Positions 2,094-41,808 are shown, numbered from the stretch's first letter. The stretch: DNA of 48,368 nt from Candidatus Nomurabacteria bacterium (GCA_943359395.1 CALRHH010000006.1:1-48368), one strand, 5' to 3'. The notes: generated by a model from the sequence alone, not told the origin. A program made the numbers and translations.

Positions 2094-3341
2094 TTATGAA
2101 AGCATCAGGACGCAAATGTTCTTCTTACCACGCTTGAGGAGTGCAACATTCTTATAAAAATTCTCTGCTGAAAGGGAATATTTCTCATCCGTAACCACTT
2201 CACCGTTCAGACTAACCGCTTTATCCTTCAAAAATAGTTTTGCTTCTCGATTAGAGCTTGCGAGTTTCGAACTCACAAGCGCGTCGAGGATAGACATACC
2301 TGCAATGGCTCCGTGTGTGGGAGCGGCACTTCTCAACATTGTGAGAGCCTCACCACTGAGCCCACTCAAACCCGCGTCGTCGAAGAGTACACTTGAGACC
2401 TTCTCTACCGTCTCCGCTGCATCGGCACCATGCGCGAGTGTGGTAACCTCACGCGCCAAAAGATGTTGAGCGTGCCGCTCCTTCGCGTCACGCCGATGCA
2501 TTTCCATGACAGCCTCGATTTCCATCCCAGAAATCAAGGTAAACAGCCTGAGGTAATCAGCAACACTCTGGTCACTTACTCCGAGCCAAAATTGGTAGAA
2601 GGCGTAGGGCGATGTTTTTTCCGAGTCGAGCCAGACGGCATTGCCTTCACTTTTGCCAAATTTTTTCCCGCTCGATTTGTCGACAACGATAGGTATCGTG
2701 AGGGCATAGGCCATCTTGCCTTCCTTGCGGCGAATAAGCTCTACGCCGGCGACGATATTACCCCACTGGTCGGAGCCTCCTATCTGCACGTCGCACCTAC
2801 GCTCCGTGTACAGATGCCAAAAATCGTACGCCTGTAGGAGAGGATAAGAGAATTCCGTAAACGAAATCCCCTCTTCGCTGTCCATGCGCGCTGCGATTGC
2901 GTCCTTTTTGATGAGCGAATTGACGGTGAAGTATTTTCCTGTGTCGCGTAGGAATGATATGAGCTCGAGCTTACCCAGCCAGTCGTAATTGTTCACGAGC
3001 TGTACTTCTATACCTCCAAGGATTTTTTCTGCTTGTTTTTTCAATTTTTCCGAGCGAACGGTAATTTCTTCAATACTCAAAAGAGGCCGCTCTCCATCCG
3101 GCTTCGGGTCTCCAATCATCCCTGTACCTCCGCCGATGAGAAGTATTATCTTATGCCCCGCGTCGGCGAAACGACGCAAGAGCATGTAAACCGCCAAGTT
3201 GCCCACGTGGATAGAATCTGCCGTTGGATCTACTCCAAGGTAGACGGTGCGCTTTGGACCATCGGTTATCTCACCAAGCTTCTCAGAGGAATACTGGTAT
3301 ATATAACCACGTTCTTTGAGGATTTCCGAGAGTTTTGCCAT
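2094..3341 (-). CDS. tyrS: Tyrosine--tRNA ligase
   Basis: YLGVDPTADSIHVGN (HIGH), QIGGSDQWGN, KFGKS and a C-terminal S4-like domain. Start taken at MAKLSE. Confidence 0.97.
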   Translation of the reverse strand: MAKLSEILKERGYIYQYSSEKLGEITDGPKRTVYLGVDPTADSIHVGNLAVYMLLRRFADAGHKIILLIGGGTGMIGDPKPDGERPLLSIEEITVRSEKLKKQAEKILGGIEVQLVNNYDWLGKLELISFLRDTGKYFTVNSLIKKDAIAARMDSEEGISFTEFSYPLLQAYDFWHLYTERRCDVQIGGSDQWGNIVAGVELIRRKEGKMAYALTIPIVVDKSSGKKFGKSEGNAVWLDSEKTSPYAFYQFWLGVSDQSVADYLRLFTLISGMEIEAVMEMHRRDAKERHAQHLLAREVTTLAHGADAAETVEKVSSVLFDDAGLSGLSGEALTMLRSAAPTHGAIAGMSILDALVSSKLASSNREAKLFLKDKAVSLNGEVVTDEKYSLSAENFYKNVALLKRGKKNICVLMLS

Positions 3342-3387
3342 GTGATTTTGCGAAATCATGCCGCGCAATCGTCCTTATGGCGCGGCC
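3340..3387 (-). repeat. Structured 5' element, copy 1 (28-bp identity with 41665-41692)
   Basis: ATGTGATTTTGCGAAATCATGCCGCGCA occurs at both sites, and the GCCGCGC/GCGCGGC stem is conserved. Confidence 0.85.
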
Positions 3388-3397
3388 CCTCAATATA

Positions 3398-3700
3398 TCA
3401 TGAACCGCGACGCTCTTCCCGCTCCTGTACCTCGTGCTCATCCATTCCGAAATGGTGCGCAAATTCATGCCAAATGGTCTCGGCTATAACTTCTCGTACG
3501 TCCTTCTTATCTTCTGCTGCTTGTTCAATGGGTACTTGATAGAGCGTAATGGTGTCGGGCAGGGTTATACCTACTCCATAATTTTCTCCGCGTTCGGACA
3601 AAGGAATACCCTTATAGAGACCGAGCAACATCTCGTCGTCGCCGAGCCCCTCTGCCTTCTTGTCTTCCGGCGAGGGCTCGTCCTCCACCAGTAACGCCAC
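3398..3700 (-). CDS. Zincin_1-like metallopeptidase, apparently N-terminally truncated
   Basis: LLGLYKG, PDTITLYQ and WHEFAHHFG (HExxH). An in-frame stop lies shortly upstream of NVALLVEDEP. Confidence 0.75.
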   Translation of the reverse strand: MALLVEDEPSPEDKKAEGLGDDEMLLGLYKGIPLSERGENYGVGITLPDTITLYQVPIEQAAEDKKDVREVIAETIWHEFAHHFGMDEHEVQEREERRGS

Positions 3701-34137: not shown

Positions 34138-34386
34138 TTATCGCCCGTCTATCAAATTCAACTTTTGCTTCCGTGTCAGACGCTTGATTTCCGCCTCGCG
34201 GGCGCGCGCTTTTGCGAATGTGCGAAACCGCTCAAAGTGCTTGAGGATAACGGGACGACGAATCTTGGTGTAATGCGCGCCCGATTTCGCGCCATTGTGC
34301 TGCTTGAGTCTTTTTTCCAAATCGTTGGTAGATCCCACATAGAGCGAACGGTCGGCACACTCAAGAATATAGGTAAAATGCATCAT
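34138..34386 (-). CDS. GIY-YIG nuclease (UPF0213-like)
   Basis: TYILEC, LYVGSTNDLEKRLKQHN, YTK.RRP and AREAEIK motifs. Confidence 0.92.
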   Translation of the reverse strand: MMHFTYILECADRSLYVGSTNDLEKRLKQHNGAKSGAHYTKIRRPVILKHFERFRTFAKARAREAEIKRLTRKQKLNLIDGR

Positions 34387-41181: not shown

Positions 41182-41583
41182 CTATATGACCGGCTGTGTA
41201 CAATGTGAACACCTTTTTGCCGCAAGAGGAATCTCGCTCAGACACTCTGTGCACTTCTTTGTGGTCGGATCCGCGGGTGGCCCCTTGCGCGATTTTCCGA
41301 CAAGAAGGTTCATCGGCTTCACGACAAGGAAGAATATCGTGGACGCAATCATGACAAACGAGATGACAGCATTGAGGAAGTGCCCATACTTAAATTCGCC
41401 GCCGTTGAAAGTAAAGACGAGCCCACCCATATCGGGGACACGGGCAACCGCCGAGATAAACGGCGTGACAAAATCAGCCACAAGCGCATTGACGATGGCG
41501 CTGAAAGCCGCACCGACAACGACGCCGACCGCTAGGTCGACGACGTTGCCGCGCAGTAAGAATTGCTTAAACTCCTTCAACAT
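41182..41583 (-). CDS. mscL: Large-conductance mechanosensitive channel
   Basis: EFKQFLLRGNVVDLAVGV, YGHFL and a C-terminal CxxC..CxxC. Confidence 0.95.
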   Translation of the reverse strand: MLKEFKQFLLRGNVVDLAVGVVVGAAFSAIVNALVADFVTPFISAVARVPDMGGLVFTFNGGEFKYGHFLNAVISFVMIASTIFFLVVKPMNLLVGKSRKGPPADPTTKKCTECLSEIPLAAKRCSHCTQPVI

Positions 41584-41601: not shown

Positions 41602-41664
41602 TTACTTCTTCGCTTTTTTCGGCTTCTTCGCCTCCTTACGACGAGAGTTGTTTCCTTTTCCCAT
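41602..41664 (-). CDS. 20-aa Lys-rich peptide
   Basis: Manual translation MGKGNNSRRKEAKKPKKAKK*, directly after the repeated 5' element. Confidence 0.6.
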   Translation of the reverse strand: MGKGNNSRRKEAKKPKKAKK

Positions 41665-41751
41665 ATGTGATTTTGCGAAATCATGCCGCGCACCCGATTC
41701 CGCAGAATCGTGTCGCGTACTGTCCTTTAAAACGCGACCAAAAGCGCGGCC
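41665..41751 (-). repeat. Structured 5' element, copy 2
   Basis: Same 28-bp core and closing stem as 3340-3387, with two extra internal hairpins. Confidence 0.85.
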
Positions 41752-41808
41752 TTCTTTCTATTAGGTTGCTAATTAATAACGAGAACATTCTACCATGCTA
41801 TGGCGCCG

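Follow-up and report, generated by a model that had tools for sequence, protein, structure and literature searches.

Several families of short, dispersed, structured repeats have been described in bacterial genomes. Rickettsia palindromic elements (RPE) are 100-150 bp long and mostly intragenic, Correia elements carry terminal inverted repeats and a TA target duplication, and repetitive extragenic palindromic (REP) sequences, with the REPINs, have a conserved GTAG head and form inverted pairs of one palindrome. Here we describe an element of about 47 nt, composed of two hairpins, that lies immediately before the start codon of tyrS, and again before a small open reading frame (ORF) upstream of mscL, in a 48,368-nt stretch of DNA from Candidatus Nomurabacteria bacterium (GCA_943359395.1, CALRHH010000006.1:1-48368). 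We refer to this whole stretch as "the window". The two copies in the window are part of a previously undescribed dispersed family of two-hairpin elements in Parcubacteria/Paceibacteria-type bacteria of the candidate phyla radiation (CPR). With its covariance model, this well-defined family adds to the little-known repeat content of the CPR. We consider it probable that the family is a mobile structured element, inserted as DNA, which forms a 5' leader at gene starts in bacteria that lack an anti-Shine-Dalgarno (anti-SD) sequence.

In behaviour the element resembles RPE, Correia, REP and IS200/IS605-derived elements. Like RPE, its copies are small structured repeats dispersed in reduced genomes, and they can sit in frame inside essential genes; unlike RPE, they are about 47-51 nt long, combine two dissimilar hairpins and lie mostly 1 nt before start codons. 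The Correia elements of Neisseria and other miniature inverted-repeat transposable elements (MITEs) are likewise gene-less repeats beside gene starts, co-transcribed with their neighbours and altering the neighbours' 5' untranslated regions. The present element differs from them in that neither terminal inverted repeats nor a TA duplication was seen and no parent insertion sequence was found: its ends are dissimilar (GCCGCG... versus ...AAAUCA), and a comparison of filled and empty tuf sites revealed no duplicated bases. REP/REPIN sequences, with the REP-associated transposases (RAYT), and the palindrome-associated elements (PATE) of the IS200/IS605 group are also short hairpin repeats, and the gain or loss of the element at tuf, without duplication, looks as seamless as theirs. 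Unlike REP/REPIN, the element has no GTAG head, and its two different hairpins follow one another in direct order. By the features that could be compared, it is not a member of REP/RAYT or MITE, nor of the SRM repeats considered below.

The two window copies share an exact 28-mer, at 3340-3367 and 41665-41692, that had no match in 100 shuffles; its 26-mer core gave the same outcome. On the minus strand the first copy reads GCCGCGC, CAUAAGGACGAUU, GCGCGGC, a single A, UGAUUU-CGCA-AAAUCA and a single C, followed by the AUG of tyrS. We call the GC-rich hairpin H1 and the AU-rich hairpin H2. In the second copy the outer H1 arms and H2 are unchanged, H2 is followed by CAU and then AUG, and the outer stem encloses both GUCGCGU-UUUAAAGGACAGU-ACGCGAC and CGAUUC-UGCG-GAAUCG. 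Minimum free energy folds (ViennaRNA) reproduce the expected helices in both copies, with modest z-scores (-0.61 for copy 1 and -3.06 for copy 2). The original prediction, made from the window alone, had described the shared 28-mer, these stems and the expanded multibranch second copy, and sequence and folds agree with it on each. It had also placed the copies against the start codons of two genes, which is correct for tyrS; the second copy abuts a 20-codon ORF upstream of mscL and not mscL itself. The features at the two sites are as follows.

3398-3400, minus strand: TGA stop of the gene upstream of tyrS, giving TGnTATATT with the hexamer at 3392-3397
3392-3397, minus strand: -10-like hexamer TATATT, a putative tyrS promoter, read from the sequence and aligned with TGnTATAnn in orthologs
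3360-3386, minus strand: H1 of copy 1, arms 3380-3386 and 3360-3366 (GCCGCGC/GCGCGGC) with the 13-nt loop CAUAAGGACGAUU, from the fold and compensatory changes
3343-3358, minus strand: H2 of copy 1, UGAUUU-CGCA-AAAUCA, from the fold; double changes in three of six pairs, exact sequence in at least 120 public loci
3339-3342, minus strand: spacer base C (3342) and the tyrS ATG (3339-3341), read from the sequence
2094-3341, minus strand: tyrS ORF from the ATG after copy 1 (Pfam tRNA-synt_1b, E = 4e-79)
41787-41792, minus strand: -10-like TAGAAT, preceded by TGG, upstream of copy 2; a putative promoter, the same TAGAAT being present in the empty orthologous sites of relatives G010 and G024
41685-41750, minus strand: compound H1 of copy 2, outer arms 41744-41750 and 41685-41691 (fold of -34.9 kcal/mol, z = -3.06)
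41712-41738, minus strand: inner H1-like hairpin of copy 2, loop UUUAAAGGACAGU, from the fold
41695-41710, minus strand: inner H2-like hairpin of copy 2, CGAUUC-UGCG-GAAUCG, from the fold
41668-41683, minus strand: H2 of copy 2, identical to that of copy 1, from sequence and fold
41665-41667, minus strand: spacer CAU of copy 2, read from the sequence
41602-41664 including the stop, minus strand: 20-codon basic ORF MGKGNNSRRKEAKKPKKAKK, upstream of mscL (41182-41583)

The 20-codon peptide is kept, with and without the element, in three of the four relatives examined (G010, G024 and G034); in the fourth, G011, the ORF is absent upstream of mscL. A search of its product against NCBIfam gave no match.

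The genome to which the window belongs (G000; 830,680 bp in 22 contigs, 52% GC) contains seven copies of the element, all in sense orientation and ending 1-3 nt before an ATG. Copies of the simple form precede tyrS, an HD-domain gene, a pfkB-type kinase gene and an NYN-domain gene, and copies of the compound form precede dnaJ, maf and the small ORF followed by mscL. Downstream genes were named by Pfam, apart from dnaJ, maf and mscL, which were named from their translations; the maf ortholog of G010 matches Pfam Maf. A typical element of about 47 nt consists of H1, with a GC-rich 7-bp stem and a loop of 12-16 nt (consensus YYYAAWKGACGNWU), then the AU-rich H2 (UGAUUU-CGCW-AAAUCA), then usually one base and the ATG. 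The loop motif, which the original prediction had proposed to be retained, is conserved among the public loci listed: GACG is present in 93 of 101 loops, and AA occupies positions -4/-3 in 85 and 80 of 94. The inner unit of compound copies begins 2-11 nt past the 5' arm of the outer H1 (at least 12 cases), and the compound architecture is also present in other genomes. ViennaRNA draws the expected helices for five of the seven G000 copies, with z-scores from -0.6 to -3.1; the exceptions are the NYN copy, folded without H2, and the dnaJ copy, folded without the inner H1-like hairpin and without the standard H2.

Comparison with Rfam, which had been proposed as a check, identified no family to which the element belongs. 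No covariance model reached its gathering score anywhere in the window, and at E values up to 5 none matched the element in the seven loci (13,907 nt), where the only match was a SAM riboswitch elsewhere in the maf locus. The statement that the element is not a T-box (RF00230) holds because there is no Rfam match. Literature searches with H2 14-mers found no earlier description, and topic searches likewise found nothing on such an element. The SAM riboswitch match (L007:392-492, plus strand; contig C4:4391-4491 of G000), divergent from the maf copy of the element, scores 43.7 bits, just below the gathering score of 44.4, and relatives retain the region.

Filled and empty orthologous sites, nested copies and copies inside ORFs indicate that the element has been inserted and removed as DNA. 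Genomes were sampled by draws, and kinship among them inflates the counts given here and below. The tyrS orthologs of 23 relatives were compared, of 39 same-genus genomes with a match. The element is absent from all 23, including the closest relatives (amino acid identities of 87%, 89% in a partial gene, and 82%), and in each the ATG is preceded by a TGnTATAnn-type motif whose end lies 6-10 nt upstream, the arrangement of a leaderless gene. The order at the window tyrS is TATATT, GAGGG, element, ATG. Other loci were compared against five close relatives (G010, G011, G017, G024 and G034), with the following results, which for tuf include further genomes.

HD-domain gene: filled in G000 only; empty in the other relatives with a match
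dnaJ: filled in G000 only; empty in the other relatives with a match
pfkB: filled in G000, G034 and G011; empty in G010, G024 and G017
NYN: filled in G000 and G011; empty in G010 (95% amino acid identity), G034, G024 and G017
maf: filled in G000 and G010; empty in G034, G024 and G011
small ORF before mscL: filled in G000 and G034; empty in G010 and G024
tuf: filled in G011, G034, G035, G030, G023 and G015; empty in G000

At tuf, the 7 bases to the left of the element in G034 align with the 7 bases before the ATG in G000. The left boundary of the element is not sharply defined. Copies are also found inside genes: relatives of the element with a GACA loop lie in frame inside PheT (L126) and UvrB (L121) of genome G110, and one copy lies inside an adenosyltransferase-like ORF of the same-genus genome G017 (L147). 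These in-frame copies are 51 nt long and are read through. The distribution among genomes is patchy (13 of 36 in the genus, 2 of 24 other sampled families and 12 of 150 other genomes of the order). Contigs from three DNA runs of one study contain the filled tyrS site in a second sample, with extra depth over the repeat, and contain no empty tyrS allele. Of the two readings offered at the outset, a tiny mobile repeat and a regulatory or translation-initiation RNA, the first has gained direct evidence from the filled and empty sites, the nested copies and the copies inside genes. A role of the second kind is speculative, and the conservation described below leaves room for a function.

Several further features were observed at these loci. 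The copies inside genes share one reading frame and encode similar peptides (...RDFAKSEG, ...RHDSAESG and ...RRDSAESG). The tuf leader of G000 (contig C3 ~53390-53590, minus strand) has an extra segment of ~80 nt relative to the G034 leader, with flanks that align, and this may be another inserted repeat. The NYN leaders of G011, G034 and G024 (L076, L078 and L077) contain a tandem direct repeat, CTAGTGGCTA-like and present twice, in a leader of ~70 nt without an SD sequence. Empty NYN sites end in CTATTT(N1-3)ATG, and the same ending precedes the small ORF upstream of mscL.

The position of the element relative to start codons is strict. We examined 70 matches to the covariance model, 44 with a GACG loop, 22 with a GACA loop and 4 with other loops. 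In the GACG group 38 abut an ATG that opens an ORF of at least 60 aa, one abuts the 38-aa L36 gene and five lie elsewhere. Six of the GACA matches abut an ATG, ten have an ATG-led ORF 15-82 nt downstream (mostly these are inner parts of compound leaders), two are inside ORFs and four are elsewhere; among those with other loops, two have an ATG-led ORF 31-41 nt downstream and two do not, one of these lying 1 nt before an ATG on a short locus. Of 36 copies, 34 have a single nucleotide between H2 and the ATG, and two have 3 nt. The covariance model included the ATG columns, and public species genomes were therefore rescanned with the H2 pattern alone, which yielded at least 121 loci. Among the 91 listed matches with a simple H1, 63 have an ATG 1-3 nt after H2 followed by at least 38 open codons, and the gap is exactly 1 nt in 53 of these. 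The remainder comprises three listed with an ATG at 0 nt, about ten with an ATG 4-31 nt further on, and others elsewhere, some of which precede terminator-like hairpins. For comparison, positions 0-3 nt before starts make up, by our rough estimate, ~5% of the intergenic DNA in such a genome.

At gene starts the orientation is always sense. A simple repeat scattered at random positions and orientations is not what is seen within the genus, where 36 of the 43 matches examined abut an ATG-led ORF or, in the case of inner copies, precede one within ~80 nt; in other families some relatives of the element lie antisense to neighbouring genes, between genes or inside ORFs. The downstream genes include those for EF-Tu, RpoC, S7, S18, L19, L36, ribosome recycling factor (RRF), KsgA, RnpA, two aminoacyl-tRNA synthetases (aaRS), GroES and KhpA, and also HD, PfkB, NYN, Maf, TraG-like, cupredoxin and lectin-like proteins. 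Two further accounts of this placement were rejected. The ATG is not supported as a built-in part of the element, since 28 of the 91 H1-bearing copies have no ATG 1-3 nt after H2 (in three it is at 0 nt) and most of these have other sequence there. The AUG within H2 was rejected as the real start, since several copies have it out of frame or have another triplet in its place.

These genomes lack the anti-SD sequence. The Rfam small-subunit rRNA model aligns to the G000 16S gene only as far as position 1520 of 1533, and the tail is GGAAUCAUUCAAAAAAG instead of GAUCACCUCCUUU. CCUCC is absent from the 16S genes of G000 and of four other element-bearing genomes of the order, whose tails are GAAUAUUUC, GAAUAAUUC, GAAUUUUUC and AAUCAAUAC. 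A subgroup of Parcubacteria is reported to have lost the anti-SD motif (PMC9297842). The 16S gene of G000 (contig C2 ~56650-58948, minus strand; L102) spans ~2.3 kb, and hence carries a large insertion after the 1390s region.

The altered tail raises the prospect that H2 substitutes for an SD sequence, its 5' arm AUGAUU pairing with (G)AAUCAU in the 16S rRNA, and the G000 tail is indeed complementary to AUGAUU(U). We find this scarcely credible, and reject such pairing because the tails of the other four genomes differ while H2 stays AUGAUUU. Changes in H2 are compensated within H2, the pairing would sit 11 nt from the AUG, and TGATT is not enriched before genes (19 seen versus 12.6 expected, with the copies themselves included in the count). 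The loops of the element showed no other complementarity to 16S rRNA.

Leaderless starts appear to be frequent in G000. With crudely defined gene starts, TANNNT has a sharp peak: in 101 of 746 ORFs it ends exactly 6 nt upstream of the first start codon. The distribution of SD-like words upstream of genes is flat. A candidate start with a -10 box 6-7 nt upstream is found for 269 of 758 ORFs, versus 98 of 7,621 internal control codons. That neither gene beside the window copies has an SD sequence, as was first noted, is a property of the whole genome and not of these two genes.

Against this background, the mobile-element reading runs as follows. The element behaves as insertional DNA: it comes and goes at orthologous sites, nests within its own H1 loop and is occasionally found in frame inside genes. 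Most often it rests in sense orientation, with H2 stopping one base short of a start codon, and in genes that are otherwise leaderless this puts it between the -10 box with its discriminator and the ATG. Transcription from the retained -10 box would then place H1 near the 5' end and give a leaderless mRNA a structured leader. That the -10 box is kept and that copies are in sense orientation together suggest that at most sites the element is transcribed as a 5' leader. The distance from the -10 box to the stem varies between 0 and 13 nt and no -10 box was found in 13 of 36 copies, so that H1 starting at the transcription start is only loosely suggested.

Start-codon choice in anti-SD-less Parcubacteria is a question on which the element is a natural experiment. 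The essential genes in which a single 47-nt folded sequence stands one base ahead of the AUG include tuf, rpoC, tyrS and those for ribosomal proteins, and sister species have some of these genes in plainly leaderless form. Either these ribosomes can work with a hairpin in contact with the start codon or the leader is removed, and both outcomes would be informative; the element may reveal how ultra-small bacteria of this kind tolerate a structured leader or make use of it. The leader might conceivably stabilise the 5' end, insulate the AUG or be processed. A specific form of the last idea, that after insertion the element is cut from the transcript one base past H2, by itself or by a host RNase, or else folds as a cap that presents the AUG as a 5' end would, seems to us rather unlikely. 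In both cases the leaderless pathway would continue to read the gene. If this were true, a mobile element would carry the bacterial equivalent of tRNA punctuation, and that machinery would explain why its sequence is so strictly conserved. The parallels, candidates only for how the element might work, are the stabilising stem-loops at the 5' ends of bacterial mRNAs and the mitochondrial tRNA punctuation that yields leaderless mRNAs; what the element would share with them is a stem-loop located at the 5' end or close to it, or folding into a unit placed exactly one base ahead of an AUG. The element was not tRNA-like in any test run.

Both stems covary. A covariance model built from the four simple copies of G000 had 30 strong matches in the retrieved loci; in their alignment, which is fitted to the model, 98.7% of cells are paired and double changes occur in 7 of 13 pairs, values reached in none of 500 shuffles. 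When the partners are slid, pairing falls to 22-52%. An independent count of 157 H1 stems taken from pattern-based matches gave the same pattern of compensation: pair 2 is U-A in 87 and C-G in 63, and pair 6 is G-C in 116, A-U in 28 and C-G in 10. The helices are thus supported by compensatory changes, as is expected of a structured cis-acting RNA in general, and the proposal of a structured RNA-like element, which an absence of covariation would have contradicted, stands. Mismatches in the 157 stems are balanced, with 13 G.U and 11 A.C, small counts in which tolerance of G.U but not of A.C was not seen. Pairing is therefore selected, and the balance gives no sign that selection acts on the sense RNA rather than on DNA hairpins. 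For gene callers and for those who search for RNA motifs, the family is a warning that a 5' structure in these genomes may be conserved and covary and yet have arisen by insertion.

The covariation also bears on the proposal that the element is a DNA operator or promoter. Both hairpins are palindromic in DNA and might bind dimeric transcription factors, and some loops contain TTGACG while H2 contains CAAAAT, so that the two could serve as -35 and -10 hexamers. This is very improbable. The compensatory changes keep pairing but not sequence, unlike those in operators; many loops have GGAC and not TTGAC; and some copies lie inside ORFs. TTGACG and CAAAAT are 18-19 nt apart, and only 3 nt separate the end of CAAAAT from the ATG, which would put a start site beyond the ATG position. 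A scan with two hexamers found nothing. An internal promoter with its -35 in the loop and its -10 in H2, or a leaderless start at either AUG, was likewise rejected, the spacings being unfit and the scans empty.

Orthologous copies are conserved to a degree that cannot be explained by neutral selfish DNA. In ten pairs of orthologous filled sites, 38-47 of the 48 positions leading up to the ATG are identical. At 4-fold degenerate sites of the adjoining genes the identity is 0.18-0.48 for nine of these pairs; the tenth pair is near-identical throughout (9 of 11 sites). Orthologous copies keep site-specific loops, namely UUUCAAAGGACG at pfkB, UAACAAUUGACG at NYN and AAGGACG at tuf. The 22-nt string of H2 plus ATG occurs exactly in at least 120 public loci of Parcubacteria-type genomes, with record titles that name Kaiser-, Zambryski-, Nomura-, Adler- and Magasanikbacteria, Paceibacterota and others. 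Among 120 such loci listed, the frame of the ATG is open for 38 codons in 115, versus 5 and 17 in the control frames, and a simple H1 is present in 101. One 12.6-kb contig titled Zambryskibacteria has three H2+ATG copies within ~3 kb (L212-L214), and consecutive genes there may each carry the element.

Both the retention of site-specific loops beside far more diverged 4-fold sites and the exact H2+ATG string in very divergent lineages weigh against the mobile-element reading, as do the element's blurred left boundary, the lack of target duplications and terminal inverted repeats at the sites compared, and the failure to link it to any transposase, nuclease or autonomous parent among the GIY-YIG, Y1 and TnpB-type genes considered. 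Conservation of this order means that a host-level function or continual correction of copies is needed as well. Resident copies must undergo correction or replacement, or else a conserved partner constrains the sequence.

The first of these points can be turned into a different account, in which the element is a portable start module selected by the host, making an internal AUG usable by anti-SD-less ribosomes that prefer 5'-terminal AUGs, with mobility secondary. It would act either through a cut one base after H2 that regenerates a leaderless mRNA or as a compact cap in which the AUG is displayed as if it were a 5' end. The strict 1-nt gap, which persists in the scan without ATG columns, fits such a module, and so do the invariable sense orientation at gene starts, the essential and highly expressed genes involved (EF-Tu, RpoC, S7, S18, L19, L36, RRF, aaRS and GroES), the conserved orthologous copies, the exact H2 across lineages and the leaderless, SD-less genomes. 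We nevertheless think it unlikely, and rank it second to a mobile structured element tolerated as a 5' leader. About a quarter of the H1-bearing copies in the wider sample are off-start, some of them before terminator-like hairpins, and others are inside ORFs; close relatives do without the element at the same genes; the G.U and A.C mismatches show no preference for the sense RNA; and the element matches no known ribozyme or RNA family.

As a regulon leader comparable to a riboswitch or ribosomal protein leader, the element would offer its H1 loop to a protein or small molecule that acts in trans and controls translation and chaperone genes together. Such a leader would fit the conserved loop motif and the 11 of 31 downstream proteins that belong to the translation apparatus. 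The gene set, however, also takes in HD, PfkB, NYN, Maf, TraG-like, cupredoxin and lectin-like proteins, and its membership differs between sister species. There is no expression platform, because there is no SD sequence to hide, and we found neither a terminator-like site nor an Rfam match. We regard this explanation as improbable.

Enzymes that might move the element were also considered. A Y1_Tnp-like family is present in 37 of 40 genomes of the genus and the element in 13 of 36, so that the presence of the one does not track the other. A full-model search of the Y1 locus found nothing better than 5 bits, so the element does not flank the Y1 gene, and no TnpB-type match was found. PATE insert beside a fixed target of 4-5 nt, without duplication, and excise seamlessly. 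For the present element no duplication was seen, empty sites look clean and the right flank is N-ATG in 63 of 91 listed copies; the left flank shows no conservation, and the search for a cognate transposase found none. The Y1_Tnp-like family reaches 14 matches per genome in the genus. One member in G000 (contig C12; L127:1246-1962, minus strand) is a 238-aa protein in which the peptide MFDLRSRT is repeated internally, the DNA that encodes it being palindromic.

The Ssn GIY-YIG single-strand nucleases, with their NTS/SRM hairpin repeats (Chenal et al. 2025, PMC11893778), offer a further comparison, in that short oriented hairpin repeats occur around genes in both cases and G000 has three small GIY-YIG genes. 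None of the seven copies overlaps the published SRM motif, HGTCWYN(0-2)YYVSBRHN(0-5)WNVSBRGN(0-2)RNCYNB, which has one match in the genome, elsewhere. The flanks of the three GIY-YIG genes carry other inverted repeats and not H1 or H2. These genes lie at 34156-34383 (minus strand) in the window and at C2:19266-19472 and C10:312-512 in G000. The C2 gene has 15-nt inverted repeats on both sides and lies within a GGTATGC (-10-like) site that is duplicated; its repeats belong to a different family.

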